A stretch of 64,000 bases of DNA from a virus. Taxonomy: Duplodnaviria > Heunggongvirae > Uroviricota > Caudoviricetes. Under the pieces are notes generated by a model. That model ran no database searches. It was given only the letters and a program-made list of their open reading frames with translations, and was not told where the DNA came from. The translations under genes and the position numbers were made by a program. Location of the stretch: the IMG/VR virus record IMGVR_UViG_3300042914_003231, positions 1 to 64,000 of that record; one strand, 5' to 3'. This document shows positions 9,760 through 33,649 of this stretch, one piece after another (the first letter of the stretch is position 1; every line of letters starts with the position of its first letter).

Positions 9760-9884
9760 CTATCAGCAGTCCTTGTACTGTATCTGCTGTTTTATAAGGA
9801 AATAGTTAATAGGTATTGACTGTCTAGTAAGGGCTCCATATAAAGCACTCTCGAGAACTCTGTTACGTATGCACCAAGAGACAG

Positions 9885-9916
9885 TCAAAAAGATGGGCTA
9901 GGAGATTGCTCTCCTA
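9885..9916 (-). terminator. terminator-like hairpin after 9949..10404
   Basis: 7-bp stem TAGGAGA/TCTCCTA with a GCAA tetraloop (minus strand); T-run 6 nt downstream. Confidence 0.5.
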
Positions 9917-9948
9917 TTGGCTGGTATGAGACAGCTCAATGCCCAATG

Positions 9949-10404
9949 TTATTTGTGTAAATAGTATCTCCATTCACTGGATCCTCCAGCTTCAGAGAAT
10001 ACAAACTTTGTACTGGTCAGTTGAATAATAGGAAAAGTGGAAGTGCTAAGTTCAAAATACCCGGCATTAGGTGCTTTCCAAGAATACTTTTTTAAGTTAC
10101 ACCATATATGTCCATCATCTACATTGTAAAAACCGGTTGAGTTGTTTATATAATCAGTATCATAAAACTGCATCCTACAAGAGGTTGTATTACTTGATAC
10201 AGATACACTCTGCCTTATGTTATTGTCATACCTTACAACAGAGTCCAATAACCATAAACCTAATAAGCTTTGTTCTTGAGCTGTTAGATTGTTATTACTG
10301 TTGTTCTGATTGGTAGAAGGTGATGGATTAGTAGTCGGTGCTGGTGAGTTCTTATTGCAGGCCATCATTACAATCAGGCTTAGCAAGCAAAATAGTTTTT
10401 TCAT
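9949..10404 (-). CDS. lipoprotein, 151 aa
   Basis: MKKLFCLLSLIVMMAC has a lipobox-like motif (MAC), followed by an Asn/Ser/Thr/Pro linker. Confidence 0.7.
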   Translation of the reverse strand: MKKLFCLLSLIVMMACNKNSPAPTTNPSPSTNQNNSNNNLTAQEQSLLGLWLLDSVVRYDNNIRQSVSVSSNTTSCRMQFYDTDYINNSTGFYNVDDGHIWCNLKKYSWKAPNAGYFELSTSTFPIIQLTSTKFVFSEAGGSSEWRYYLHK

Positions 10405-10424
10405 TTGAGTTGTTGTTTAATTGG

Positions 10425-10643
10425 TTAATAAATTACTCCACATTTCTTACACTTAGTATGTCCGTGATTGGATTCACCCCATTCATGTACACATGTAGAA
10501 GGAGCTGGTGTATCTTGTTTAAGTTCATAGTTCTCATTTATTAGACTGATAATTACATCAGCTGAGGCTTCTGGAGTTCTGTCTCCATTCTCCACGGCTC
10601 TTAATAGCTTGCGAAGATAGTCTCTTTGAATATGTGTTGCCAT
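10425..10643 (-). CDS. small protein with a C-terminal zinc-ribbon-like motif, 72 aa
   Basis: C-terminus CVHEWGESNHGHTKCKKCG. Confidence 0.6.
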   Translation of the reverse strand: MATHIQRDYLRKLLRAVENGDRTPEASADVIISLINENYELKQDTPAPSTCVHEWGESNHGHTKCKKCGVIY

Positions 10644-10667
10644 AGTTTGAGTTGATTTTAGAGTTGA

Positions 10668-10704
10668 TTAATAAAATGAGAGGGCTTTCTTTCGGTACCC
10701 TCTC
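10668..10704 (-). terminator. terminator-like hairpin 25-60 nt upstream of the 10643 start codon
   Basis: 7-bp stem GAGAGGG/CCCTCTC, followed on the minus strand by ATTTTATTAA. Confidence 0.5.
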
Positions 10705-11021
10705 TGACTTTACCTGCTTGCTAAGACTTTACTGTTGGCTCTCACATCCCAAAGCTATAAGGGAAAGGCACATGTTGTGTGTTTTCATACCTGGTCTTAA
10801 CCTGTTGATAGTACAACAGTGGTAGGCCCCAGTACACGCCTACTCTAATTCCGGTTATTGTATCAGCCGGTAGATTGTTAATAGATAGGTTCCCCATAAA
10901 GGGTTGGAAGTCAAAACGCTACACTTCCCGCCAGGGTGCGACCCTGTGTTTTCATCGAATGCCATGCTAAAGACCTAGAGGCGACCACCGTTACTAGATC
11001 TAGAGTTGATGCTAGAGTATA
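10705..11021. ncRNA. candidate structured RNA or long leader (ORF-free, GC-enriched)
   Basis: No ORF in the track. Hairpins CAGGGT-gcg-ACCCTG and CCGG...CCGG. A possible TAGCTTTG -7 box on the minus strand at 10753-10760. Confidence 0.3.
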
Positions 11022-11576
11022 TTAGAGTTCAAGTAATTTGTTGATATACAATACCATCTCCTTGTAAGTGATCAAGTGATTACCCAAGTATCTTTTGATC
11101 TTAGGCCACTCAGCCTTATACTTCTCATACATAGAGGAATTCTCTAGTAATGAGTACTTTATGTTTGCGATGATATCGCAGAGCTTAACAAACACAGCTA
11201 GTTCATTCTCGACTAGTGTCCGGTAGAACTCTTCATTCTTTCTTTCGGCCCTGTTCCTACCCCTCATCTCAGTACATAAGAAAATGATCTCGGCTAATTC
11301 TTCAGCCTCCTGTTGTGCCATTCCCTTCTTCCTACCTATCTCTATGATATCATTGTATGTAACCCGAGCATCTTCGATCATATCATGACCATAGCAAGCT
11401 GCCTTGACTAAGAACAGTTTATCTCCCGGTATTAGATGACTGAACTTTTTAGCTTGTGCATGCACATAGTGCAAGTGTTGGGAATAAGGTAGAACCTTAG
11501 CATACTTCTGGTTACATACCTCATCATGCCGGCTCATACACCAGTCCCTAAAGTATTCAAATGTTATAATATCCAT
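11022..11576 (-). CDS. HD-domain phosphohydrolase, RelA/SpoT-hydrolase-like (HD_4-like), 184 aa
   Basis: His...His-Asp...Asp pattern: PYSQHLHYVH, AACYGHDMIEDARVTYNDI, VKLCDIIANIKY. Confidence 0.65.
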   Translation of the reverse strand: MDIITFEYFRDWCMSRHDEVCNQKYAKVLPYSQHLHYVHAQAKKFSHLIPGDKLFLVKAACYGHDMIEDARVTYNDIIEIGRKKGMAQQEAEELAEIIFLCTEMRGRNRAERKNEEFYRTLVENELAVFVKLCDIIANIKYSLLENSSMYEKYKAEWPKIKRYLGNHLITYKEMVLYINKLLEL

Positions 11577-11642: not shown

Positions 11643-11858
11643 TTAGTAATTATCAGCCATAGAAGCTAGTATAAGTATTGCACCAATGACTATTAGTATG
11701 ATGGCCAGTGGGAAACATAAGTTCCACCAGCTTAATACAGCTATGGTGACTAGCATAACTCTTGGTTTGATTTCGGTGGCGGTCTCTATATCATATAGAA
11801 TACCTGCTATTATACCTATAAGAGATAGAATAGCAATTGTTAAAATGATCTTGTCCAT
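11643..11858 (-). CDS. small two-TM membrane protein, 71 aa
   Basis: ORF track; almost entirely hydrophobic. Confidence 0.6.
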   Translation of the reverse strand: MDKIILTIAILSLIGIIAGILYDIETATEIKPRVMLVTIAVLSWWNLCFPLAIILIVIGAILILASMADNY

Positions 11859-12433: not shown

Positions 12434-12883
12434 CTACATTTTGTCAACACCGCCTTTAACAGCCGCATTCTTTGCTTGCAACTTGGCAATGTTAGCTGAG
12501 CGATTGCTAGCCAATGTGCCTGCAAAACGCTTTAGTTCAGCAAGCTTATCTTGTGCATAAGCTGCTTTGGTAGCCTCATCAGCACCGCTGATTAAGTCGG
12601 CCAATTGCTTCTCTACTGAGTTATCAGTAAACCAGATGATTTCTCCTGAAGCACTTACTGTACGCTCCAATGTTGCCGAAGTACCATACTTAACAGCGGC
12701 TTTTGCTGTGAAGTGGATTAATGGGTTGCCCTCATCGTCCTGACTGTCAATACCTTTAGCCAATTGGTCTTGGCGGTATTGTTCTGCACCCTCGCCAGTT
12801 ACCTTGTAACTAACCATTGGTGTTCCTGTTTCCTTAGCTTTGTAAGGATTTGGGTTGCTGATTGTGATTGTTTTCTTTTCCAT
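12434..12883 (-). CDS. hypothetical protein, 149 aa, GC-richer codon usage
   Basis: ORF track. Codon usage is visibly richer in G/C-ending codons than in neighbouring genes. Confidence 0.7.
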   Translation of the reverse strand: MEKKTITISNPNPYKAKETGTPMVSYKVTGEGAEQYRQDQLAKGIDSQDDEGNPLIHFTAKAAVKYGTSATLERTVSASGEIIWFTDNSVEKQLADLISGADEATKAAYAQDKLAELKRFAGTLASNRSANIAKLQAKNAAVKGGVDKM

Positions 12884-13579: not shown

Positions 13580-13606
13580 ATGATGTTGGTTTGTGTTAAA
13601 ATAATG

Positions 13607-13742
13607 ATCAAGTGCTACAGGGTGTACATTCCCTGCTCACTATTCTAGGACTCCCTCTCGTAGGTGTATTAAGTAGTAGCCACGACTGGCCTTACTCCCC
13701 CGAATAGTCTCTCAGGATTTCTCCTGTCTTGAGCACTTGATC
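13607..13742. other. structured module A: 11-bp perfect inverted repeat closing about 114 nt
   Basis: GATCAAGTGCT (13607-13617) pairs with AGCACTTGATC (13732-13742). Confidence 0.6.
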
Positions 13743-13937
13743 AATCAAGTTGATGGGATAAAGAAGAAAGAATAGAGTAAGGTGATGAGTGGATCTCTCC
13801 ACTCGCGGCCTTATATAGTTTGTCGTTGCCCTACACATGCAACTATTAAGTATGCAGGGATCGTCCTTGGTTGGCTACATGCTCAAGGATGCATGGATGA
13901 CATGATACCATCTCATCAATCAAGTTCATGGGATAAA
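13741..13937. repeat. 22-mer direct repeat TCAATCAAGTT(G/C)ATGGGATAAA, one copy after each structured module
   Basis: 13741-13762 and 13916-13937 differ by one mismatch and are 175 bp apart. Confidence 0.85.
13783..13918. other. structured module B: inverted repeat TGATGAG(T)GG / CC(AT)CTCATCA
   Basis: 13783-13792 pairs with 13908-13918. An internal hairpin GAGTGGA-tctc-TCCACTC lies at 13787-13804. Confidence 0.5.
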
Positions 13938-14012
13938 AAAAGACAGAACTTTTTCTCCAAGGAAAAAAGTTTCTTACCAGGCTGAATTAGGAAAATGTTT
14001 TTTTCAGACCCT

Positions 14013-14058
14013 GGGGGTAGGGGGTACTATGAAACACGGGGGGAGGTTGTTGGGGAGG
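14013..14058 (+). other. G-run cluster (possible G-quadruplex)
   Basis: GGGGG ta GGGGG ... GGGGGG a GG ... GGGG a GG, within an otherwise AT-rich genome. Confidence 0.4.
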
Positions 14059-14146
14059 ACCCAATCCACAAACACTATTATGTAAAATACCCACCCCGGG
14101 ATATTATATTCTATTGATCAGGTATTGCTTATCTTAGAATTTGAGT

Positions 14147-14154
14147 TATATTTG
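14147..14154 (+). promoter_or_regulatory. Bacteroidota-type -7 box TATATTTG, 4 nt before ATG 14159
   Basis: Matches the TAnnTTTG consensus. Confidence 0.5.
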
Positions 14155-14158
14155 TCCT

Positions 14159-14902
14159 ATGAAAAAAAGTACAATATGGGTTATTGTGGGACTGATAGGA
14201 GTCTTGCTTATTACCCTGGCTTGGATTATGATTTATTCTAAGCCTAAACCTATTCCGGATATAAAAAATGGAGTAACCTATCATAAGATTTATAATCATA
14301 CTAAGGATTCGGTATTGGTATGGGTTACTTTGGGGGCAACCCCGGGGTGTCTGCAGGATGTGACTAAGATACCTTTTGTTACTTCTGGATCAGGGTTAGT
14401 AGGATCCTTCTACCTAGCAGCTGGTGATTCTACTATTTGGTATGCACCGGACTCAGTTGGATTCAATGGAGTATTTAGCTTTAATTATCAGCCAGATAAC
14501 TGCCCAGCTCCTACGTATCCTAACGGTATTAACCAGTATGAGTTTATAGTGAACAATGCATTCCAAGCAGGACAACCTCAAGAGAGTATCAATATCTCAT
14601 GTGTTCATGGGGTGAACTGTGTTATTCGTGTAGATATAATTACTAGTAATCCATTTAATGCCGGCTCTAAAGTTCCTGTTGTGGAAAGCTTTGCTAATAC
14701 ACTTGATCGGAATCAACTTGGTATCCCTGGTGTATACCCGTATGCGTGCACACATTGTACAGACTACATAGGAGCCCCCGGCTGTATCTCTACTCCTCAG
14801 CCTGTTTCTAAAGAACAAATCTGCCAGGTACAAAGACCAGCTAACCAATCAGGAGGAATGATAAAAGTTATATATTTAGGAAATGAAGAACCTGCAAAAT
14901 AA
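14159..14902 (+). CDS. membrane-anchored or secreted Cys-containing protein, possibly thaumatin-like fold, 247 aa
   Basis: N-terminal TM segment. The segment NQYEFIVNN...ESINISCVHGVNCVIRV resembles the thaumatin T.AEF.L...D.YDVSLVDGFN.P pattern. The ATG at 14159 is preferred over the track's TTG at 14141. Confidence 0.6.
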   Translation: MKKSTIWVIVGLIGVLLITLAWIMIYSKPKPIPDIKNGVTYHKIYNHTKDSVLVWVTLGATPGCLQDVTKIPFVTSGSGLVGSFYLAAGDSTIWYAPDSVGFNGVFSFNYQPDNCPAPTYPNGINQYEFIVNNAFQAGQPQESINISCVHGVNCVIRVDIITSNPFNAGSKVPVVESFANTLDRNQLGIPGVYPYACTHCTDYIGAPGCISTPQPVSKEQICQVQRPANQSGGMIKVIYLGNEEPAK

Positions 14903-14903
14903 A

Positions 14904-14935
14904 TTTGCATAATTAAAAAAACTATATTATATTTG
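14904..14935 (+). promoter_or_regulatory. promoter: TTTG (-33) N20 TATATTTG (-7)
   Basis: TTTG at 14904-14907 and TATATTTG at 14928-14935. Same spacing as the promoter at 16511-16542. Confidence 0.6.
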
Positions 14936-14939
14936 TAAC

Positions 14940-15011
14940 ATGAAACTGTTTTTCTTATCGTTTAGTTGTTTATGGTATCTCTCACAAGGAGGCAGCCCGG
15001 GCATTTCATGA
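14940..15011 (+). CDS. leader ORF 1, 23 codons: MKLFFLSFSCLWYLSQGGSPGIS
   Basis: ATG lies 4 nt after the -7 box. Residues 3-15 use only F, L, S, C, W and Y, the amino acids of the next 8 tRNAs. A terminator follows 36 nt after the stop. Confidence 0.5.
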   Translation: MKLFFLSFSCLWYLSQGGSPGIS

Positions 15012-15047
15012 TAGGTTTTTCATAGTTAAACATGATTAATTGACAAA

Positions 15048-15079
15048 ATCCCTGGGCTGATTACCCGGGGATTTTTTTT
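15048..15079 (+). terminator. intrinsic terminator immediately before tRNA-Phe
   Basis: 9-bp stem ATCCCTGGG/CCCGGGGAT with a 7-nt loop and T8. Confidence 0.8.
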
Positions 15080-15151
15080 GGACTCATAGCTCAGTAGGTA
15101 GAGCGCAGGACTGAAAATCCTGCCGCACTGGTTCGATTCCAGTTGAGTCCA
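15080..15151 (+). tRNA. tRNA-Phe (GAA)
   Basis: Acceptor GGACTCA/TGAGTCC; D GCTC/GAGC; anticodon arm CAGGA-CTGAAAA-TCCTG; T arm ACTGG-TTCGATT-CCAGT. Confidence 0.92.
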
Positions 15152-15156
15152 CACAA

Positions 15157-15239
15157 GCCGACACTGTAGAGTGGGAGATCTACACCAGACTGTAAATCTG
15201 GAGTCTTAGACTTTGGGAGTTCGAATCTCTCTGGCGGCA
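15157..15239 (+). tRNA. tRNA-Tyr (GTA), long variable arm
   Basis: Acceptor GCCGACA/TGGCGGC (one mismatch); arm CCAGA-CTGTAAA-TCTGG; T arm GGGAG-TTCGAAT-CTCTC. Confidence 0.85.
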
Positions 15240-15244
15240 CAAAA

Positions 15245-15330
15245 GGAAGGTTGGCAGAGCCTGGCCGATTGCACCAGTCTTGAAAACTGGAGGTCCCTTG
15301 GATCCGTGAGTTCGAATCTCACACCTTCCT
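15245..15330 (+). tRNA. tRNA-Ser (TGA)
   Basis: Acceptor GGAAGGT/ACCTTCC; arm CCAGT-CTTGAAA-ACTGG; long variable arm; T arm GTGAG-TTCGAAT-CTCAC. Confidence 0.9.
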
Positions 15331-15390
15331 CAACATGCATAGAAAAATGCACTTTTCTATACATGTTTTTTGAAAGTGCATAAAAACTAT

Positions 15391-15431
15391 ACATCTCTAG
15401 CTCAACTGGCGGAGCAGCGGTCTCCAAAACC
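15391..15431 (+). pseudogene. truncated tRNA-Trp-like 5' portion (acceptor 5' strand to anticodon loop only)
   Basis: D arm GCTC-AACTGGCG-GAGC and loop CTCCAAA. Shares the 13-mer GGTCTCCAAAACC with the intact tRNA-Trp (15419-15431 versus 15834-15846). No T arm and no 3' acceptor complement. Confidence 0.6.
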
Positions 15432-15464
15432 ATAAAGCAGTTTGGATACTGAAGTAAAAACATG

Positions 15465-15472
15465 TATATTTG
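15465..15472 (+). promoter_or_regulatory. -7 box TATATTTG, 3 nt before ATG 15476
   Basis: Matches TAnnTTTG. Confidence 0.45.
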
Positions 15473-15475
15473 TAC

Positions 15476-15817
15476 ATGCCTTCAAAAAATAAAGAAATAC
15501 TAAAAAAGCATAGAGATGCTTGGTATAAAAAGAATAAAAAAAAACAGATTACTAACCAGCTTGAAAAAAGACAGGAATTAAAGAAATGGTTTCAGGAATA
15601 TAAGAGATCATTATCTTGTAAAGAGTGTGGATTTAGCTTTGAATTATTTCCAGAATGTTGTGATTTCCATCACAGAGATGGAGATACAAAGAAAGATGTA
15701 GTAAGCAGATTGCTACCAATGGGAATAAAAGCACTAAAGAAAGAGATTGAAAAATGTGATCCTCTTTGTGCTAATTGTCATAGAAAGCTCCATGCAAAAT
15801 TAGAATATACAGGTTAG
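15476..15817 (+). CDS. HNH homing endonuclease (free-standing, inside the tRNA array)
   Basis: CKECG...CCDFHHRDGDTKKD...CDPLCANCHRKLH is an HNH/zinc-finger motif. The stop codon lies inside the tRNA-Trp 5' end. Confidence 0.8.
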   Translation: MPSKNKEILKKHRDAWYKKNKKKQITNQLEKRQELKKWFQEYKRSLSCKECGFSFELFPECCDFHHRDGDTKKDVVSRLLPMGIKALKKEIEKCDPLCANCHRKLHAKLEYTG

Positions 15818-15880
15818 CTTATTGGAAGCACCAGGTCTCCAAAACCTCGGATGGAAGGAGTTCGATTCTCTTAACCTGTG
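15809..15880 (+). tRNA. tRNA-Trp (CCA)
   Basis: Acceptor ACAGGTT/AACCTGT; D GCTT/AAGC; loop CTCCAAA; T arm AGGAG-TTCGATT-CTCTT. Confidence 0.85.
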
Positions 15881-15885
15881 CACAA

Positions 15886-15957
15886 GGTACCGTGGGTGAG
15901 GGGTTTAGCCTCAGGTCTGCAAAACCTGCTACGTCTGTTCGAATCAGACCGGTACCT
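15886..15957 (+). tRNA. tRNA-Cys (GCA)
   Basis: Acceptor GGTACCG/CGGTACC; arm CAGGT-CTGCAAA-ACCTG; T arm GTCTG-TTCGAAT-CAGAC. Confidence 0.92.
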
Positions 15958-15958
15958 C

Positions 15959-16174
15959 ATGAAAGAGATAGATGAAGAGTTCAACTTACTTCAGTTGTAC
16001 ATCTATGATTGCATCAACCGGATGTGTTTGAATGCATACATAGATAAGACTAAGTGTTCTCATCACCCTTTGTATACTTTTGAAGAATACAAAACGGCAA
16101 TATGGGATCCTTGGACTGGAGAGACTGTAGCAAGTAGAACAAGATGGGCTTTAAATATTAAGCCTTTATTTTAG
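15959..16174 (+). CDS. hypothetical protein, 71 aa, flush between tRNA-Cys and tRNA-Ser
   Basis: The ATG lies 2 nt after the tRNA-Cys discriminator. The stop TAG (16172-16174) overlaps the tRNA-Ser start (16173). The track ORF 15878.. was trimmed to the first ATG outside the tRNA. Confidence 0.5.
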   Translation: MKEIDEEFNLLQLYIYDCINRMCLNAYIDKTKCSHHPLYTFEEYKTAIWDPWTGETVASRTRWALNIKPLF

Positions 16175-16257
16175 AGAAGTGGCTGAGTGGCTTAAGGCAC
16201 CGCACTGCTAACGCGGAGGATGTAACAGTTCCACCGGTTCGAATCCGGTCTTCTCTG
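16173..16257 (+). tRNA. tRNA-Ser (GCT)
   Basis: Acceptor AGAGAAG/CTTCTCT; loop CTGCTAA; long variable arm; T arm ACCGG-TTCGAAT-CCGGT. Confidence 0.88.
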
Positions 16258-16262
16258 CAAAT

Positions 16263-16343
16263 GCCCATATGGTGGAATGGTAGACGCGCTGGTCTTAGGA
16301 ACCAGTACCGTAAGGTATGTAGGTTCGAGTCCTACTATGGGTA
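16263..16343 (+). tRNA. tRNA-Leu (TAG)
   Basis: Acceptor GCCCATA/TATGGGT; arm CTGGT-CTTAGGA-ACCAG; long variable arm; T arm GTAGG-TTCGAGT-CCTAC. Confidence 0.9.
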
Positions 16344-16348
16344 CATAT

Positions 16349-16431
16349 ACTCCTGTGGTGTAATTGGTAGCCGCGCTAGGCTTAAGACTCAGTGGACTTA
16401 GTCCGTGCCGGTTCGAGTCCGGCCAGGAGTA
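16349..16431 (+). tRNA. tRNA-Leu (TAA)
   Basis: Acceptor ACTCCTG/CAGGAGT; loop CTTAAGA (weak anticodon stem); variable stem GGACT/AGTCC; T arm GCCGG-TTCGAGT-CCGGC. Confidence 0.8.
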
Positions 16432-16474
16432 CTTTGCTCACCTGATTAATAAAGTGACCAAAAATTATTACACT

Positions 16475-16520
16475 GTCTACCAATCAGTTAGACCTTCTGA
16501 AGAAAATATTTTTGGTAGAC
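16475..16520 (+). other. 9-bp stem-loop at the end of tRNA block 1
   Basis: GTCTACCAA (16475-16483) pairs with TTGGTAGAC (16512-16520). The 3' arm overlaps the -33 TTTG of the next promoter. Confidence 0.5.
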
Positions 16521-16542
16521 TCAAACAAACCTATTATATTTG
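16511..16542 (+). promoter_or_regulatory. promoter: TTTG (-33) N20 TATATTTG (-7)
   Basis: TTTG at 16511-16514 and TATATTTG at 16535-16542. Confidence 0.6.
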
Positions 16543-16550
16543 TCTTGCAA

Positions 16551-16652
16551 ATGAAACGCATACAACATATCCAGATGGCCAATACAGGCAGAAATACGGT
16601 GGAGATTAAAGATCCGACCGTGTCCATGGGTGTTGCATGTAGTTTTAGATAA
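16551..16652 (+). CDS. leader ORF 2, 33 codons: MKRIQHIQMANTGRNTVEIKDPTVSMGVACSFR
   Basis: ATG lies 8 nt after the -7 box. Residues 2-24 use only the 14 amino acids served by the 16 downstream tRNAs, and all 14 occur. A terminator follows 28 nt after the stop. Confidence 0.5.
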   Translation: MKRIQHIQMANTGRNTVEIKDPTVSMGVACSFR

Positions 16653-16680
16653 GACATTTTTAGTTAGCTAAACCGCATTA

Positions 16681-16710
16681 AACCCCTGGACAAGTTCTAG
16701 GGGTTTTTTG
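16681..16710 (+). terminator. intrinsic terminator immediately before tRNA-Pro
   Basis: Stem (AA)CCCCTGG/CTAGGGG(TT) with a 7-nt loop and T6. Confidence 0.8.
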
Positions 16711-16718
16711 TTTTACCC

Positions 16719-16791
16719 CGGGATGTAGATCAGTTGGTAGATTGCGTGCTTTGGGAGCATGAGGTCGCAGGTTCGAGCCCTGTCATCCCGA
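16719..16791 (+). tRNA. tRNA-Pro (TGG)
   Basis: Acceptor CGGGATG/CATCCCG; arm CGTGC-TTTGGGA-GCATG; T arm GCAGG-TTCGAGC-CCTGT. Confidence 0.9.
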
Positions 16792-16847
16792 CTAGCAGAA
16801 GTGGTACTCCAGTGCCCGTACTGAAAACCAAACAAAACTGGAGACAT

Positions 16848-16920
16848 GGGGTTCAAGCACAAGCGGACGTGCATTAGCTTTGCAAGCTAGAGGATCTCGG
16901 TTCGAGGCCGAGGAGCTCCA
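16848..16920 (+). tRNA. tRNA-Ala (TGC)
   Basis: Acceptor GGGGTTC/GAGCTCC with a G3:U70 pair; D GCAC/GTGC; arm TTAGC-TTTGCAA-GCTAG; T arm CTCGG-TTCGAGG-CCGAG. Confidence 0.88.
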
Positions 16921-16921
16921 C

Positions 16922-17083
16922 ATGAATGAAGAACTATATAATTGGCTGGAGAAGATGTTTATGTTCTCCAATATCCCTAAGTACAGGAAGTACTTTAAGG
17001 AATGGGTGGACAACATAACTGAAGATCAGATCACCGGTTTTCAGAGAATGATGGGAGCCAACTATAAGATTAAGCAGGAATAG
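16922..17083 (+). CDS. hypothetical protein, 53 aa, flush between tRNA-Ala and tRNA-Gly
   Basis: The ATG lies 2 nt after the tRNA-Ala discriminator. The stop TAG (17081-17083) lies inside tRNA-Gly, which starts at 17074. Confidence 0.5.
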   Translation: MNEELYNWLEKMFMFSNIPKYRKYFKEWVDNITEDQITGFQRMMGANYKIKQE

Positions 17084-17148
17084 CTCATCCTTGGTAGAGC
17101 TCCAGTCTTCCAAACTGGAGGTGGCGAGTTCGAGCCTCGCTTCCTGCT
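17074..17148 (+). tRNA. tRNA-Gly (TCC)
   Basis: Acceptor GCAGGAA/TTCCTGC; arm CCAGT-CTTCCAA-ACTGG; T arm GCGAG-TTCGAGC-CTCGC. Confidence 0.92.
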
Positions 17149-17331
17149 CACAACTGCAGTGCCCATGTACAGTGGGGGTACAATCACTGCAGGTAGAAGA
17201 GTGCTAAGAAATCCGGTGTTGGGTTAGCTCTGGACACTAAGGTAAGGAGTGGGTAAGGACCACAGTCCCCGTCTAACAGGGACAAAGTTTTGCAAAAGCC
17301 TTCCCTGGGATGGAGCACTCTTCATGATATT
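17149..17331 (+). ncRNA. structured non-tRNA spacer RNA (unknown family)
   Basis: 8-bp hairpin CTGCAGTG/CACTGCAG (17154-17192). 10-bp long-range helix GAAGAGTGCT (17196-17205) with AGCACTCTTC (17314-17323). Inner hairpin GTCCC...GGGAC. GC-enriched; no cloverleaf. Confidence 0.4.
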
Positions 17332-17407
17332 GGTCTGTTAGGGGAGTCCGGCCGTCCCTACCTCACTGTCTATGAGGGGATCACGGGTTCGAATCCCGTA
17401 CAGACCG
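17332..17407 (+). tRNA. tRNA-Asp (GTC)
   Basis: Acceptor GGTCTGT/ACAGACC; arm CCTCA-CTGTCTA-TGAGG; T arm ACGGG-TTCGAAT-CCCGT. Position 37 is an unusual T. Confidence 0.78.
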
Positions 17408-17518
17408 CTGGGCGGTAGTCTAATGAGCAGGGTTAGTAGCGTGCTGACTAACTAGTCTTAGGACGATCATCTTATGGGATGATAGATATCAGTAACCATT
17501 CTGATCTGCCCCACCAAT
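17408..17518 (+). ncRNA. second structured non-tRNA spacer (unknown)
   Basis: Hairpins ATCATC-ttatgg-GATGAT and ATCAG-taaccatt-CTGAT; ends ...CTGCCCCACCA; repeated TAGTCT(A/T)A. Confidence 0.3.
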
Positions 17519-17590
17519 TGCCCCTTAGCTCAGCGGTAGAGCAAAACCCTGTTAAGGTTGAGGTCCTAGGTTCAATCCCTAGAGGGGCAG
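17519..17590 (+). tRNA. tRNA-Asn (GTT)
   Basis: Acceptor TGCCCCT/AGGGGCA; loop CTGTTAA; T arm CTAGG-TTCAATC-CCTAG. Confidence 0.9.
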
Positions 17591-17595
17591 CAAAT

Positions 17596-17670
17596 AGACG
17601 AGTAGCTCAGCCTGGTTAGAGCGCCCGCCTGATACGCGGAGGGTCACAGGTTCAAATCCTGTCTTGTCTA
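17596..17670 (+). tRNA. tRNA-Ile (GAT)
   Basis: Acceptor AGACGAG/CTTGTCT; loop CTGATAC; T arm ACAGG-TTCAAAT-CCTGT. Confidence 0.88.
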
Positions 17671-17727
17671 CTTTGGGACCGTTTGGTAGTGACATAGTCT
17701 TGAACTAGATCATAGAAACTATCACAT

Positions 17728-17800
17728 AGGAGTATAGCTCAGTTGGGAGAGCATCCGGTTTACATCCGGACGGTCCAAGGTTCGAGTCCTTGTATTCCTA
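17728..17800 (+). tRNA. tRNA-Val (TAC)
   Basis: Acceptor AGGAGTA/TATTCCT; arm TCCGG-TTTACAT-CCGGA; T arm CAAGG-TTCGAGT-CCTTG. Confidence 0.9.
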
Positions 17801-17884
17801 CAAACTTTAAAGATTTAAACTTATAATGTTTACACTATTAAAATATAAGGTTATAAAGAGAAGGATAAAACCTTAACTCATTAT

Positions 17885-17956
17885 TCCCTCATAGCTTAGT
17901 GGTAAAGCAGTATACTTTTAATATACGGAGCGGCAGTTCGATTCTGCCTGGGGGAA
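17885..17956 (+). tRNA. tRNA-Lys (TTT)
   Basis: Acceptor TCCCTCA/TGGGGGA; arm GTATA-CTTTTAA-TATAC; T arm GGCAG-TTCGATT-CTGCC. Confidence 0.9.
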
Positions 17957-17962
17957 CTTTAA

Positions 17963-18034
17963 ACCCCCGTAGCTCAATGGAAGAGTAAGAGACTTCTAAG
18001 CTCAAGGTTACCAGTTCGAGTCTGGTCGGGGGTT
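17963..18034 (+). tRNA. tRNA-Arg (TCT)
   Basis: Acceptor ACCCCCG/CGGGGGT; loop CTTCTAA (short GAG/CTC stem); T arm ACCAG-TTCGAGT-CTGGT. Confidence 0.82.
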
Positions 18035-18040
18035 CTGAAT

Positions 18041-18114
18041 AGGCCCTTAGCTCAGTTGGTTAGAGCAGTACTCTTATAAGGTAAAGGTCACCGGTTCAAA
18101 CCCGGTAGGGCCTA
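18041..18114 (+). tRNA. tRNA-Ile (TAT), reads ATA
   Basis: Acceptor AGGCCCT/AGGGCCT; loop CTTATAA; T arm ACCGG-TTCAAAC-CCGGT. Confidence 0.85.
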
Positions 18115-18124
18115 CATAATATTT

Positions 18125-18199
18125 AGCGGGGTGACTGGAGTTGGTTCCAGCACAGCCTCATAAACTGTACAGACGCGGGTTCGAGTCCCGCCCCCGCTA
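18125..18199 (+). tRNA. tRNA-Met (CAT), elongator-like
   Basis: Acceptor AGCGGGG/CCCCGCT; loop CTCATAA; T arm GCGGG-TTCGAGT-CCCGC. No 3xG:C initiator signature in the anticodon stem. Confidence 0.85.
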
Positions 18200-18265
18200 C
18201 AATGAGTGCTAATGACACCTGATAAAGGAGGGGATATATTACCAGGTCCCCCGACACTCAGTAAC

Positions 18266-18337
18266 GCTCCCATCATCTAGGGGTCAGGATATCAGGTTTT
18301 CGACCTGAGCACCAGGGTTCGAATCCCTGTGGGAGTA
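18266..18337 (+). tRNA. tRNA-Glu (TTC)
   Basis: Acceptor GCTCCCA/TGGGAGT; arm TCAGG-TTTTCGA-CCTGA; T arm CAGGG-TTCGAAT-CCCTG. Confidence 0.9.
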
Positions 18338-18342
18338 CTTAA

Positions 18343-18415
18343 GCTTGAGTAGCACAATTGGTAGTGCACCTCCCTTGTAAGGAGAAGGTTGTCAGTTCGA
18401 GTCTGACCTCAAGCT
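18343..18415 (+). tRNA. tRNA-Thr (TGT)
   Basis: Acceptor GCTTGAG/CTCAAGC; D GCAC/GTGC; loop CTTGTAA; T arm GTCAG-TTCGAGT-CTGAC. Confidence 0.9.
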
Positions 18416-18417
18416 CT

Positions 18418-18491
18418 GTGTCTGTAGAGGAATTGGTAGACTCCCCGGAATGTGGATCCGGTGCTTGTGGGTTCAAGTCCCATCAGACACC
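18418..18491 (+). tRNA. tRNA-His (GTG)
   Basis: Acceptor GTGTCTG/CAGACAC; arm CCGGA-ATGTGGA-TCCGG; T arm GTGGG-TTCAAGT-CCCAT. The only tRNA followed by an encoded CCA. Base -1 is T, not G. Confidence 0.88.
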
Positions 18492-18497
18492 CCATTA

Positions 18498-18571
18498 GTT
18501 CTCATAGCTCAATTGGATAGAGTCCTTGACTACGGATCAAGAGGTTGAAGGTTCGACTCCTTCTGAGAACA
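18498..18571 (+). tRNA. tRNA-Arg (ACG)
   Basis: Acceptor GTTCTCA/TGAGAAC; arm CTTGA-CTACGGA-TCAAG; T arm GAAGG-TTCGACT-CCTTC. Confidence 0.92.
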
Positions 18572-18576
18572 CATAA

Positions 18577-18647
18577 TGCCCTTTCGTCTAACGGCAGGAC
18601 CTGTGGTTTTGGGCCACATGATCGAGGTTCGAATCCTTGAGGGGCAA
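18577..18647 (+). tRNA. tRNA-Gln (TTG)
   Basis: Acceptor TGCCCTT/AGGGGCA; arm TGTGG-TTTTGGG-CCACA; T arm CGAGG-TTCGAAT-CCTTG. Followed by a T-run. Confidence 0.9.
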
Positions 18648-18680
18648 CTAGTTTTTTATTGTTTGCACATCCAAAGTTTT

Positions 18681-18692
18681 TTTGTATATTAG
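18681..18692 (+). promoter_or_regulatory. candidate late-promoter box TTTGTATATTAG
   Basis: An identical 13-mer TTTTGTATATTAG recurs at 44670-44682, upstream of another structural gene. Confidence 0.4.
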
Positions 18693-18716
18693 CAATAATT
18701 TTCATATATTATTAAT

Positions 18717-19607
18717 ATGGATGTAGTAAACTTTGATGCTCTCAAAGCACAGGGCAAAATTATAAAAATATCAGATGTGAATCCTGATGAGGATTACTTC
18801 ATCATTGGTCATTATGATCCGCGAAGAAGAGAATTTAAAGCTACTGATTACCCTATCTATGCTATAAAAGCACGTGATGTTTTAAATTCTTCAAATGCTT
18901 TTAATAATCCTTTTGATTTCTATTTAGATGGTAATGCTCCTGCAGGAGGGGATGGCTCAGCAAGTAATCCTTTTAATTTATTTTCTCAAGCCGTTGCCTA
19001 TATTAATACACTTCCTTCAGCAACATATACTCTATATGTATTGCCGTACAGTTATACAGAATCATCCCCGGTTATTAATCTACCAAACAATTCTGCTCTA
19101 AATATAATAGGAGTAGTAGCTAATTCTTGTAGCTTTAATTTTAATGTACAATTTACCGCAATACCAGCTTCCTCATATGCTGTATGGTATGAAAATATTG
19201 CTTTTAGTAATTTTGAACTAGATCTTTCTTTAGCATCTTTTGCTTCTATATCCTTTACAGGTTCTAAGGTAGATCTTATAAGAACAGATTCTAATCCTTC
19301 TACTATAGTGACATTACAAGGTGCAATGTTTGCCTCTACCCTTTCCGGTAGAGTTTTATGGTTAAATGGTGTAATGTTTGGTGATATTAATGTTCAAACA
19401 AATGGTGAGTTGTTTTGTAATACGGTATTACAACTACAAGGACAATTTAAGTTAACAGGATCTGCTAAGTTAAAAACTTTAAGTATGCCAAACCCTACAC
19501 CTAATGGTGTAGATGGTATTCCTGTAGGTTTGAATATACCGGTTTGGAGAACTGATGCTGCAAGTGATGAAACTTTTACAGGAACTCTTACAAAAATAAT
19601 ATATTAA
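18717..19607 (+). CDS. tail fibre or receptor-binding protein, 296 aa
   Basis: The N-terminal ~55 aa are paralogous to 19610..20287 (ALKAQGKIIKISD...DYFIIGHY versus LIAQGKILKASE...DYLIIGKY). First gene after the tRNA array. Confidence 0.55.
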   Translation: MDVVNFDALKAQGKIIKISDVNPDEDYFIIGHYDPRRREFKATDYPIYAIKARDVLNSSNAFNNPFDFYLDGNAPAGGDGSASNPFNLFSQAVAYINTLPSATYTLYVLPYSYTESSPVINLPNNSALNIIGVVANSCSFNFNVQFTAIPASSYAVWYENIAFSNFELDLSLASFASISFTGSKVDLIRTDSNPSTIVTLQGAMFASTLSGRVLWLNGVMFGDINVQTNGELFCNTVLQLQGQFKLTGSAKLKTLSMPNPTPNGVDGIPVGLNIPVWRTDAASDETFTGTLTKIIY

Positions 19608-31232: not shown

Positions 31233-31442
31233 ATGGATGCATTATATGACTGGTTGTTTCATTACAACCCACACACAAAATCATGGGCAGCTTTTAGAAG
31301 AGAGCACATGCAAAATTACTTTAATGGTGATCATGAGAATGTAGTAAAAAGCAAGTCTCAAAAAACTTTAGAAGAGCTTATCATTTCTAATGAGGGAGAT
31401 CTTGAAAGAATTCATAAATTTGTAAGTAAGCTAAAAAGCTAA
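31233..31442 (+). CDS. hypothetical protein, 69 aa
   Basis: ORF track. Confidence 0.55.
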   Translation: MDALYDWLFHYNPHTKSWAAFRREHMQNYFNGDHENVVKSKSQKTLEELIISNEGDLERIHKFVSKLKS

Positions 31443-33649
31443 TGAATTCTTTTTTCTATACTGACATACCTACCTGGGATAATGGTGAATGGAAAACCAC
31501 CAGCTTTGGCAGCCATGAAGATTTTCGGGTCTTCATAAAAAGTGTGTTCAAAGAACCCGGTAAGTATGAGTTTGATGAGACTTCAAAACTATTTAATGCT
31601 GAGGCCACTAAGTGGAATCAACAAAAGTTTTATTGTGCTGCCCCTAGGAATACTAAGGACTACATTCTTTATTGGGATGATCAAAAAGCTAAGTGTAGAA
31701 AAGGAGTTATTTTCACCCAGAAAGGAAAGACTTGGTTTCTCCCGCGCGAGTACTACATGTGGTTGAATTTCCTACCTATCAACAACAAAGAGAAAAGATT
31801 ATTTTCTTTCCCGGATATAAGAGATGCTCAGTATCACATGGCCTTGTATAATCTATTGGCTGAGTTATTCTACAAGCATTCTGCTATCCTTAAAAAACGT
31901 CAGATAGCCTCTTCTTACTATCATGCCGCCAAACTAATCAACTACTTATGGTTTGAAGAAACTCCTATCTTAAAAATGGGAGCTTCTCTAAAAGCTTATG
32001 TATTGGATACCTGGAGATTTGTAGTAGAGTACAAGAACTTTTTGGATGAACACACAGCATGGTACCGTGATATGAATCCTAAAAAACCTTTGGATTGGCA
32101 GCAACAAGTTGAGACTGAGATTCCAGGTACCACCAGAAAGATCTTAAAAGGTTTAAAGGGAGTTCTTAAAGGAACTTCTTTTGAACAAGAACCTACGGCA
32201 GGTGTAGGTGGACCTTGTACCTACTTCTTCCATGAAGAAGCTGGTGTAGCTCCTGATATGATGGAGACTTTTGGTTACATGAAACCCGCCTTAAAATCAG
32301 GTATGATCACAACTGGTACATTTATTGCTGCAGGATCTGTAGGTGACTTAGATCAGTGTGAGCCATTACGCGAGATGATCATGAGACCCGATGCCAATGA
32401 TATTTATCCTGTAACCACTAATCTTCTTGATGATAGAGGTACAGTTGGTGAATCAGGTCTTTTTATTCCTGAGCAATGGTCGATGCCTCCTTGTATAGAT
32501 GAGTTTGGAAACTCACTTGTAGAGGATGCATTAAAAATGCTGGATGATTACTTTGCCGATCTTAAGAAAAAGCTTTCTCCAGAATCATACCAGTTAGAAG
32601 TATCTCAGCATCCGCGTAACATTGAAGAAGCTTTTGCAGCCAGAACTGTTTCAATATTCCCTACTCACTTGGTTGCTTCTCAAAAGAGAAGAATCTTGGA
32701 TAAAGAATATAGCATAGAGTATGTAGATCTTGCAAGAGGAGTTGATGGTAAATGGTTGGTGGATAAATCTAAGAAAATACCTATTTCAGAGTTCCCTGTT
32801 AGCAAAGCCACAGAAGATAAAACAGGAGTAATTTGTGTATATGAAAGACCTGATCCTAAAGCTGAGTGGGGTACATACTATGCTTCTATTGACCCGGTCG
32901 CTCAAGGTAAGACAAATACTTCAGAATCTCTATGCTCTATTTATGTTTACAAAATTCCTATTGAAGTAACAAGAATCGATGGTGAAGAAGTGAAAACTTA
33001 CATAGAAGAGGATAAGATTGTTTGTTCTTGGACTGGCCGATTTGATGATATAAACAAAACCTACAAGAGACTAGAAGATATCATTGAGTGGTACAATGCA
33101 TGGACTTTAATAGAAAACAACGTACCTGGTTTCATCACCTACATGATCAGTAAGAGAAAACAAAAGTATCTGGTACCAAAAAGTCAGGTAACCTTCCGTA
33201 AAGATGTGGAGTATGTGCAACATGGTCCAGAAGAATATGGTTGGAGAAACACCGGTACTCTTTTCAAGACTTACATCCTACCTTACCTGGTAGACTATTG
33301 TAAAGAAGAAATAGATGTTATCAAAAAACAGGACAGCGAAGATATTGTAAAGATCAAGTATGGTATTGAGAGGATTCCGGATATCATGGCCATGAAAGAA
33401 ATGGAGATGTATAGAGAAGGGTTGAACGTTGACCGCTTGACAGCTCTGGGAGCTTTAATTGCTTTTGCTAAAGTGCAGGAAGCTAACAGAGGTATACGAA
33501 AAAGGATAGACCGGACAACAGATAAGAAACAGTTGCAAAAGTCAGAAAAAATCAGTACATTTACTAATAGTCCCTTTAGACATATTGGAATGAATAACGG
33601 GTCATCAGGAAAAAGACCTCCTAGAAACCCTTTTAAAAATATACGATGA
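31442..33649 (+). CDS. terL: terminase large subunit, 735 aa
   Basis: Walker-B-like TYFFHEEAG; NIEEAFAAR; nuclease motifs YYASIDPVAQGK and TLIENNVPG; precedes the portal gene. The classical GxxxxGK[ST] P-loop is not obvious (candidates KKRQIASS and QKGKT). Confidence 0.82.
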   Translation: MNSFFYTDIPTWDNGEWKTTSFGSHEDFRVFIKSVFKEPGKYEFDETSKLFNAEATKWNQQKFYCAAPRNTKDYILYWDDQKAKCRKGVIFTQKGKTWFLPREYYMWLNFLPINNKEKRLFSFPDIRDAQYHMALYNLLAELFYKHSAILKKRQIASSYYHAAKLINYLWFEETPILKMGASLKAYVLDTWRFVVEYKNFLDEHTAWYRDMNPKKPLDWQQQVETEIPGTTRKILKGLKGVLKGTSFEQEPTAGVGGPCTYFFHEEAGVAPDMMETFGYMKPALKSGMITTGTFIAAGSVGDLDQCEPLREMIMRPDANDIYPVTTNLLDDRGTVGESGLFIPEQWSMPPCIDEFGNSLVEDALKMLDDYFADLKKKLSPESYQLEVSQHPRNIEEAFAARTVSIFPTHLVASQKRRILDKEYSIEYVDLARGVDGKWLVDKSKKIPISEFPVSKATEDKTGVICVYERPDPKAEWGTYYASIDPVAQGKTNTSESLCSIYVYKIPIEVTRIDGEEVKTYIEEDKIVCSWTGRFDDINKTYKRLEDIIEWYNAWTLIENNVPGFITYMISKRKQKYLVPKSQVTFRKDVEYVQHGPEEYGWRNTGTLFKTYILPYLVDYCKEEIDVIKKQDSEDIVKIKYGIERIPDIMAMKEMEMYREGLNVDRLTALGALIAFAKVQEANRGIRKRIDRTTDKKQLQKSEKISTFTNSPFRHIGMNNGSSGKRPPRNPFKNIR

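Follow-up and report, generated by a model that had tools for sequence, protein, structure and literature searches.

Short open reading frames matched to the tRNA genes behind them: candidate ribosome-mediated attenuators of phage tRNA arrays

The leader regions trpL, hisL, pheL, leuL, thrL and ilvL consist of a promoter, a short open reading frame (ORF) with regulatory codons, a segment that can pair with a terminator arm, a terminator and the regulated genes, and they share one sensor, the speed of the ribosome on codons whose charged transfer RNA (tRNA) is limiting. ilvL and thrL sense more than one amino acid, and the E. coli pheST operon carries a leader-peptide attenuator on a component of translation that answers to the cognate charged tRNA. 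The reason for and timing of tRNA use by phages are debated, with compensation for codon usage, substitution for host tRNAs as they decay and evasion of defence systems that cleave tRNAs all proposed, and we know of essentially no account of how phage tRNA expression is regulated. We analysed a stretch of 64,000 nucleotides (nt), positions 1 to 64,000 of IMG/VR record IMGVR_UViG_3300042914_003231 from a virus of the Caudoviricetes, which we call the window, and found in it units with the same layout as these leaders, placed in front of blocks of tRNA genes. We put the probability at about 75% that such a unit is a ribosome-mediated (leader-peptide) transcription attenuator controlling a block of phage tRNA genes.

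The terminase of the window is ~24% identical to crAss-like phage terminases of Bacteroides, Flavobacterium and Cellulophaga. Its 24 tRNA genes, which serve all 20 amino acids, form a 3.6-kilobase (kb) array at 15080-18648 on the + strand, located at the switch from leftward to rightward genes. According to ARAGORN, the array is composed of two blocks:

15080-16432, + strand: putatively regulated block 1, with Phe-gaa, Tyr-gta, Ser-tga, Trp-cca, Cys-gca, Ser-gct, Leu-tag and Leu-taa
16719-18648, + strand: putatively regulated block 2, with 16 tRNAs for 14 amino acids

The order within block 2 is Pro, Ala, Gly, Asp, Asn, Ile, Val, Lys, Arg, Ile-tat, Met, Glu, Thr, His, Arg and Gln. Block 1 is interrupted in the window by two inserted ORFs, and its eight tRNAs are contiguous in L001 and L026, two of the related phages described below. 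The gene upstream of the array ends at 14902, immediately 5' of the promoter of the first unit (14904-15079), which contains the following features:

14904-14935, + strand: predicted Bacteroidota-type sigma-A promoter, with -33 TTTG at 14904-07, a 20-nt spacer and the -7 box TATATTTG at 14928-35
14940-15011, + strand: leader ORF 1, MKLFFLSFSCLWYLSQGGSPGIS, 23 codons plus a stop at 15009-11, predicted to be leaderless
14946-14984, + strand: putative sensing core, codons 3-15, all cognate to block 1 tRNAs, with 8 of 8 anticodons covered
14995-15003, + strand: candidate antiterminator strand (region 2), GCCCGGGCA, in the ORF tail and complementary to the 5' arm of the terminator
15048-15079, + strand: intrinsic terminator, a 9-base-pair hairpin (15048-56 with 15064-72) plus T8 at 15072-79

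An initial annotation, made from the letters of this stretch, had already placed the promoter, the ORF, the hairpin and the T8 here, together with GCCCGGGC at 14995-15002, and all are present as it described them. The eight tRNAs that it listed ahead of the next such element are the ones returned by ARAGORN, and its claim that residues 3-15 draw only on those tRNAs and sample all eight anticodons is borne out codon by codon.

The sequence pair TTTG at -33 and TAnnTTTG at -7 is the Bacteroidota sigma-A consensus (PMC7366714), and in flavobacteria the -7 box occupies positions -12 to -5 (PMC9723704). By this spacing transcription would start at 14940, on the A of the ATG, and the messenger RNA (mRNA) of leader 1 is probably leaderless; the box is separated from the ATG by 4 nt, and the distance from the start of the box to the ATG is 12 nt in all five leader-1 homologs. 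Window-wide the motif TTTG-N17-23-TAnnTTTG is not over-represented, with 5 full matches in 64 kb against 3.4 expected. Three of these cluster in 1.7 kb of the tRNA region, on the + strand, before leader 1, an HNH-like ORF and leader 2, and all three carry TATATTTG. The remaining phage genome seems to use other promoters. The hairpin of unit 1 begins 36 nt past the ORF stop, with a loop at 15057-63 and a folding energy of -13.7 kcal/mol. Its T8 runs up to 15079 and tRNA-Phe begins at the next position, 15080; because this leaves no room for a promoter between them, block 1 is reachable only by read-through.

Leader 1 contains 13 consecutive cognate codons, in which both Ser and both Leu isoacceptor families are represented. 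The probability of an in-set codon is 0.267 under the codon usage of the phage, giving an upper bound of 4e-7 for a run of 13, and the other two frames of the leader hold in-set runs of only 4 and 2. Dinucleotide shuffles of leader 1 itself never reach the match (0 of 20,000). Six frames at eight loci yield 1,472 real ATG ORFs of 15-60 codons, and of these leader 1 is the sole qualifier for run plus full coverage. The match between leader 1 and its tRNAs is beyond chance. Additionally, in the other crAss-like leader families the run-length p-values are ~1e-3 to 1e-6. When 20,000 random leaders are generated from phage codon usage, at most 1 attains run and coverage together, and dinucleotide shuffles reach them in 0 of 20,000 cases in each of five families. 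In-set runs span 8-24 codons against the leader's own block and at most 6 against the wrong block, with 13 vs 3 for leader 1 and 24 vs 3 for leader 2.

Leader 1 could alternatively encode a functional micropeptide, with a hydrophobic, signal- or membrane-like character, or be no gene at all, its likeness to the tRNA set following from base composition. The core is T-rich and hydrophobic, and the block 1 amino acids F, L, S, Y, C and W are exactly the set with U-first (UNN) codons, as this account would have it. T-richness as the cause of the set is, however, ruled out by the shuffles above, which preserve it, and the account does not provide for the lack of any other qualifier among the control ORFs, for the co-variation of leaders with different tRNA partitions or for the advance forecast described below. 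A signal-peptide or micropeptide reading is further ruled out by hydrophilic leaders that follow the same rule (MKRIQHIQ..., FFPQQPFF, SSRSRSS and QQQQQQQ). We give this account almost no weight.

The same design recurs at 16511-16716, in front of block 2:

16511-16542, + strand: predicted unit 2 promoter, TTTG followed by TATATTTG at 16535-42
16551-16652, + strand: leader ORF 2, MKRIQHIQMANTGRNTVEIKDPTV followed by SMGVACSFR, codons 1-24 representing the 14 amino acids of block 2
16623-32, + strand: candidate region 2 of this unit, UCCAUGGGUG, in leader ORF 2
16680-16714, + strand: intrinsic terminator, with a stem of 16680-90 and 16696-706 and then a T-rich run

Here the terminator ends a few nt before tRNA-Pro (16719). 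The first 24 codons of leader 2 use all 14 amino acids of block 2 and no others, and they cover 16 of 16 anticodons; Arg, which has two tRNAs, is represented by CGC and AGA, and Ile, also with two, by ATA and ATY. This combination of run and coverage was reached by no random or shuffled sequence, and the homologs of leader 2 in L001 and L026 differ in sequence and keep the amino-acid property.

A near-identity search of the deposited phage collection returned tRNA matches only and no close relative of the window, the sole non-trivial DNA match of the array in that collection being a tRNA of LR756502.1. A clade-specific 30-mer of tRNA-Gly had no match in the viral collection, the search with the protein downstream of the array recovered no related loci, and PHROGs and Pfam gave no match for the flanking proteins or for the ORFs embedded in the array. 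Relatives were instead reached through homologs of the 253-amino-acid protein encoded just upstream of the array. They comprise window-type phages (L001, L018, L026-29 and L008) and a second group (L010, L012-14, L019, L024 and L032-37); in L020, L021, L022, L025, L030 and L031 the homologs of this protein have no tRNA array nearby.

Window-type phages keep the split into 8 and 16 tRNAs and both leaders, with diverged sequences and the same amino-acid sets. The frame of leader ORF 1 is kept in L018, L026, L008 and L001, and the leader-1 core of L001, TGT CTA TAT TGG AGT TTG TTT TCA, has one codon per block 1 tRNA. The second group, of the L035, L013 and L019 type, splits its tRNAs as 3, 13 and 4 amino acids. 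Cores such as FFPQQPFF, FPQPQQPF and FFPQQQPF stand before Pro-Phe-Gln, in a unit with its own downstream terminator; the core NIIIINNKATKNMWVERTGTDC precedes the 13-amino-acid block, and cores such as MNRKNIVINNNRTTNMWIERTAGKDC hold exactly the 13 amino acids of the next block. At its contig end L013 has a third leader, with the core SLHSLSYLYL, followed by tRNA-His. From this we forecast Ser, Leu and Tyr tRNAs downstream of tRNA-His before a longer contig was examined, and in L035 the core SLHSLSYLSL is followed by a terminator, by His, Ser, Ser, Tyr, Leu and Leu, and by another terminator, as forecast. Trp and Cys are grouped with F/L/S/Y in the window type and with the large block in the second group; His and Phe also switch blocks between the phage groups, and the leaders shift to match. 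All 14 leaders of the crAss-like lineage that were tested (14/14) cover 100% of the anticodons of their own block.

Upon comparing the window, L018 and L026 pairwise, we observe 7 synonymous and 0 nonsynonymous changes in core codons 7-15, and 3 synonymous and 15 nonsynonymous changes in the eight tail codons, where GCC(C/T)GGG is kept. Decoding of the core combined with an RNA-level role of the tail would be expected to leave such a pattern. The initial annotation had named related phages as the place where its proposal could fail, through absence of the element or lack of co-variation with tRNA content; in those phages the element is present and co-varies. Its central idea, a translated leader that samples the codons of the tRNAs behind a conditional terminator, is supported by and passes the computational tests applied here.

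We also found the design in two huge phages. The 642-kb uncultured phage LR756502.1 has seven units of this kind in its tRNA clusters:

Leader containing KHKHFSKLNKWFSNHRF: terminator, then Phe, His, Phe, Lys, Lys, Lys
Leader containing SSRSRSS: terminator, then Arg, Ser, Arg
Leader containing IETIGYTGYEGAYSE: terminator, then Glu, Tyr, Glu, Tyr, Glu
Leader containing GVIAIGAG, with three ATA codons: terminator, then Ile(tat), Gly, Gly, Gly, Ala
Leader beginning MKTMNLNMNLNTLTVVNNTLCIR: terminator, then an Asn/Leu/Val/Ile/Thr/Arg block
Leader containing VDQDQPD: terminator, then Pro, Pro, Asp, Asp, Asp
Leader MTTSFQQQQQQQINRTD, with seven Gln codons in a row: terminator, then four tRNA-Gln genes

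Individually these units have shuffle p-values of 0.11 to 6.5e-4, and the Fisher-combined value is 9e-9. Three of them are kept in the 635-kb relative LR745206.1, with diverged sequences and different terminator arms. The two huge phages are unrelated to the window's lineage and carry the design independently. Such units are absent from the tRNA arrays of one Stenotrophomonas phage and one Bacillus phage and from loci with isolated tRNAs; the latter include the contigs recovered with a 463-amino-acid protein, which carry only 0-2 isolated tRNAs and were taken as negative controls. Because the control arrays and the isolated-tRNA loci lack them, the design is specific, and neither general to tRNA arrays nor an artefact of the scan.

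A canonical GC hairpin with a T5-T9 run separates the ORF from the tRNAs in every full unit, of which there are more than 20. A simple terminator scan found the hairpin of leader 2 and missed that of leader 1, which is supported by a dedicated scan, by folding and by pair covariation in relatives: across five homologs its helix is 88% paired, with two-sided changes in 3 pairs, and a score this high is reached by 0 of 500 shuffles. When nascent transcripts are folded with the 3' arm omitted, 10 of 16 leaders pair the 5' arm with a stretch in the ORF tail; this partner lies 5-29 nt ahead of the stop and in every case downstream of the sensing core. For leader 1 the free-energy difference (ddG) of the candidate antiterminator is -8.7 kcal/mol vs -4.7 kcal/mol in shuffles, of which 2 of 100 are as low. 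Tails pair better with their own terminator arms than with those of other units (-10.2 vs -7.6 kcal/mol; 0 of 20,000 permutations), and with a uniform tail definition over 18 leaders of both lineages the values are -8.84 vs -6.54 (0 of 20,000 permutations); the ORF cores have no own-arm preference (p = 0.15). In a ribosome footprint model, the probability that the arm is captured without a ribosome, with a ribosome stalled in the core and with a ribosome at the stop is 0.40, 0.96 and 0.57 for L018, 0.31, 0.78 and 0.38 for L026, and 0.20, 0.75 and 0.05 for L001. In this model the three leader-1 homologs behave classically, being high when stalled and low at the stop.

Together these features lead to the following scheme, in which we infer the translation of the ORF, the effect of a stall on read-through, the direction of that effect and the exact pairing register. 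Host RNA polymerase would initiate at the Bacteroidota-type promoter, probably at the A of the ATG, and produce a leaderless mRNA, on which a ribosome would translate the 23-codon leader with codons 3-15 as a panel holding at least one codon per downstream tRNA. When the eight charged tRNAs are plentiful, the ribosome would reach the stop and cover, or have just unwound, the G-rich tail at 14995-15003; the hairpin with its T8 would then form, and transcription would stop just before tRNA-Phe. When any one of these tRNAs is scarce, the ribosome would stall in the core and leave the tail segment free to pair with the emerging 5' arm of the terminator, no terminator would form, and the polymerase would enter the tRNA block. 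The outcome would be a demand-driven, self-limiting expression of exactly the scarce tRNAs, with the second unit exerting the same control over the other 16.

Several observations weigh against this scheme. Any stall would be of uncertain strength, because each tRNA has only 1-3 codons in the leader, in contrast to the tandem runs of classical attenuators. Leaderless starts would be uncommon, as 5' untranslated regions of <10 nt are rare in Bacteroidota mRNAs, at ~4-6% (PMC7366714, PMC9723704). In silico, leader 1 of the window does not switch cleanly, because the static model captures the arm in every state, with 0.87 in the absence of a ribosome and 0.62 with a ribosome at the stop codon. 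Comparison of minimum free energies with shuffles is significant for few leaders (leader 1, 2 of 100; L001 leader 2, 3 of 100) and not for most, and column-wise covariation in five homologs reveals no compensatory change in the register GCCCGGG:CCCTGGGC. Of the pairing between GCCCGGGC and the terminator that the initial annotation had put forward, the predicted partner and the co-adaptation of tails to their own arms stand, and covariation of the register and a clean on/off behaviour do not. In leaders of the L2, A and B types, region 2 is located 16-29 nt before the stop, and these units need a kinetic explanation, since a terminating ribosome would not cover it. L026 lacks tRNA-Ile(tat), Met and Glu, yet its leader 2 keeps ATA, ATG and GAG, and leaders therefore do not follow small, probably recent, tRNA losses; leader 1 of L001 includes nine kinds of non-block residue. 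Furthermore, the promoter of the inserted HNH-like ORF (15441-15817) could drive five of the eight block 1 tRNAs and bypass the attenuator. Finally, block 2 contains a further short ORF with a codon match:

17826-17876, + strand: third codon-matched mini-ORF, MFTLLKYKVIKRRIKP, 8 of 16 codons being AAR, AGR or ATA

Its codons match Lys(ttt), Arg(tct) and Ile(tat), the three tRNAs that follow; the codon count is reached by 50 of 20,000 shuffles, and the mini-ORF is conserved in L026 (13625-13672) and L001 (12745-12795). Between this mini-ORF and tRNA-Lys, 8 nt past its stop, there is no terminator, and because of this any function it has must use another mechanism. Codon-matched ORFs, at least this one, may thus act through another output.

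This bears on a second explanation, in which the codon sensor is real and its output is different: an opposite sign, with read-through favoured by efficient translation, Rho or polarity effects, or an influence of the ribosome on how the tRNA precursor is processed, folded or stabilized. Of the parts of the attenuator the antiterminator is the least secure, the arm being captured in every modelled state in several leaders, and the stop of the mini-ORF so close to tRNA-Lys hints that access of RNase P or folding of the tRNA could be affected. On the other hand, such an output accounts neither for the canonical terminator of every full unit and the co-adaptation of tails to their own 5' arms, nor for the stalled-high, stop-low behaviour of three leader-1 homologs. 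Additionally, a ribosome terminating at the stop would sit ~36 nt upstream of the hairpin, a distance at which it could not occlude the hairpin directly. We think a different output unlikely.

The promoter data bear on a third explanation, a constitutive terminator that insulates a separate small unit, with the tRNAs made by another polymerase, such as a phage-encoded one that reads through from upstream, and the role of the ORF dependent on phage tRNAs. Host-type promoter motifs are rare elsewhere in the window, most genes presumably use another transcription system, and crAss-like phages encode their own RNA polymerases. Under this explanation, however, it is left unaccounted for that each ORF samples its own tRNAs and shifts with the block, and that the tails are complementary to their own terminator arms. 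There is also no promoter between terminator and tRNAs, and the upstream gene ends just before the promoter of the unit. Pure insulation seems to us highly improbable.

Returning to the attenuator, we lean towards the view that the tRNA arrays of phages with Bacteroidota-type hosts are circuits that respond to demand at the resolution of codons, each block standing behind a leader that tests for its own tRNAs. The shortage of any single host tRNA would switch on the matching phage tRNAs, and a restored supply would switch them off. Mismatched codon usage, shut-off of the host or an anticodon-nuclease defence that cleaves tRNAs could each cause the shortage.

Beyond the units themselves, the window carries a phage head and packaging module:

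31442-33649: terminase
34280-37048: portal
38508-40133: major head protein

Within the array, the HNH-like ORF at 15470-15817, recognized by eye from its Cys/His motifs and without a Pfam match, is inserted between tRNA-Ser(tga) and tRNA-Trp. It has its own TTTG/TATATTTG promoter at 15441-72, an apparent duplicated 5' fragment of tRNA-Trp lies just upstream at ~15395-15440, and the insertion is not present in L001 and L026; it looks like a homing-endonuclease insertion. Between tRNA-Gly and tRNA-Asp, at 17150-17331, we observe a conserved structured RNA of ~140-180 nt, with homologs in L001 (12164-12328) and L026 (13017-13189). RNAalifold folds it into 49 pairs at -55 kcal/mol, of which 12 persist despite two-sided changes, and it has no Rfam match; it appears to be an uncharacterized non-coding RNA embedded in the tRNA array.

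Among the relatives, the L026 segments concerned in the tRNA losses and the retained leader codons are 12525-12620 and 13600-14142, and its tRNA-Thr(tgt) at ~13840-13912 was overlooked by ARAGORN and identified by eye. L024, at 11470-11545 and 11696-11843, has a variant leader that begins with GTG (VKKIVYILQPFNQFPQGSKGFLCE), a tRNA remnant between tRNA-Pro and tRNA-Gln, and a tRNA-Phe relocated behind two small ORFs, one with a GatB/YqeY-domain match; this unit appears to be undergoing rearrangement. Units of large blocks have a spacer of ~280-340 nt from the terminator to the first tRNA (L035 11073-11410; L013 3368-3644), and the 340-nt gap between the block-B terminator and the first tRNA of L035 contains no TAnnTTTG and no Rfam match. 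In L019 the gene for a TROVE (Ro60-like) protein adjoins the tRNA array (9884-11296), and weak, sub-threshold matches to YrlA (Y RNA-like) overlap tRNAs in the window (17982-18097) and in L035 (5808-5916); a phage Ro/Y-RNA module may reside near tRNA arrays. L021, a 141-kb contig with a homolog of the flanking protein, has Cas7-like and Cas3-like genes at 13926-18768 and may contain a phage-borne CRISPR-Cas module. Finally, L006 and L007, which are related via the N-terminal part of the 463-amino-acid protein, encode suppressor-type tRNAs with the anticodons tta, which reads TAA, and tca, which reads TGA and is called selenocysteine (SeC) by ARAGORN (L006 4351-4422; L007 1946-2021). This suggests stop-codon recoding in these phages.

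If the attenuator reading is correct, the units would be the first attenuator class that targets tRNA genes and would constitute a built-in sensor of attacks on the tRNA pool, which these phages would measure codon by codon and answer on demand. Leader-peptide attenuation would extend from biosynthesis genes and a synthetase operon to tRNA genes, with panels of up to 16 species. The debate on phage tRNAs would then become directly testable, because the sensor codons state the shortage that each block answers, and the leader would provide a natural, compact and programmable sensor of tRNA availability. The rule is also usable to annotate incomplete phage contigs, since an unseen tRNA block was forecast correctly.

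In a full-text literature search, with most subscription-journal papers outside its reach, no tRNA operon was reported to be under a leader-peptide attenuator. At E <= 1 the T-box covariance model RF00230 has no match in the window at 14000-19000, nor in L035 at E <= 0.1, and the Rfam leader families (Trp, His, Leu, Thr and similar) give tRNA matches and sub-threshold chance matches only, the best Rfam match over leader 1 being NsiR1 with 22 bits against a gathering score of 39. The phage elements resemble T-boxes in that tRNA status would choose between terminator and antiterminator upstream of translation-related genes. They differ in that a T-box binds its tRNA directly, through a specifier codon and the T-box sequence, senses one tRNA each and involves no ORF or ribosome, whereas the phage elements depend on a reading frame. 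In mycobacteria, leaderless polycysteine short ORFs are reported to act as Cys-responsive attenuators (bioRxiv 10.1101/834739). They are alike in being leaderless, in standing at the 5' end of an operon and in coupling expression to amino acid or tRNA supply through codon content, and different in that they concern one amino acid, protein-coding targets and another phylum.

Compared with the classical leaders, the huge-phage unit MTTSFQQQQQQQ before tRNA-Gln genes has the very appearance of hisL or pheL. Elsewhere the phage units depart from the trpL type: their targets are tRNA genes instead of enzymes, their panels span up to 16 tRNA species with usually 1-3 codons each in place of tandem runs, and they sample isoacceptors separately, as seen for both families of Ser, Leu and Arg and for Ile ATA vs ATY. 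The pheST attenuator differs from them in its synthetase target, its single amino acid and its bacterial setting, whereas the elements presented here are phage-borne and, unlike the trpL type, probably leaderless.

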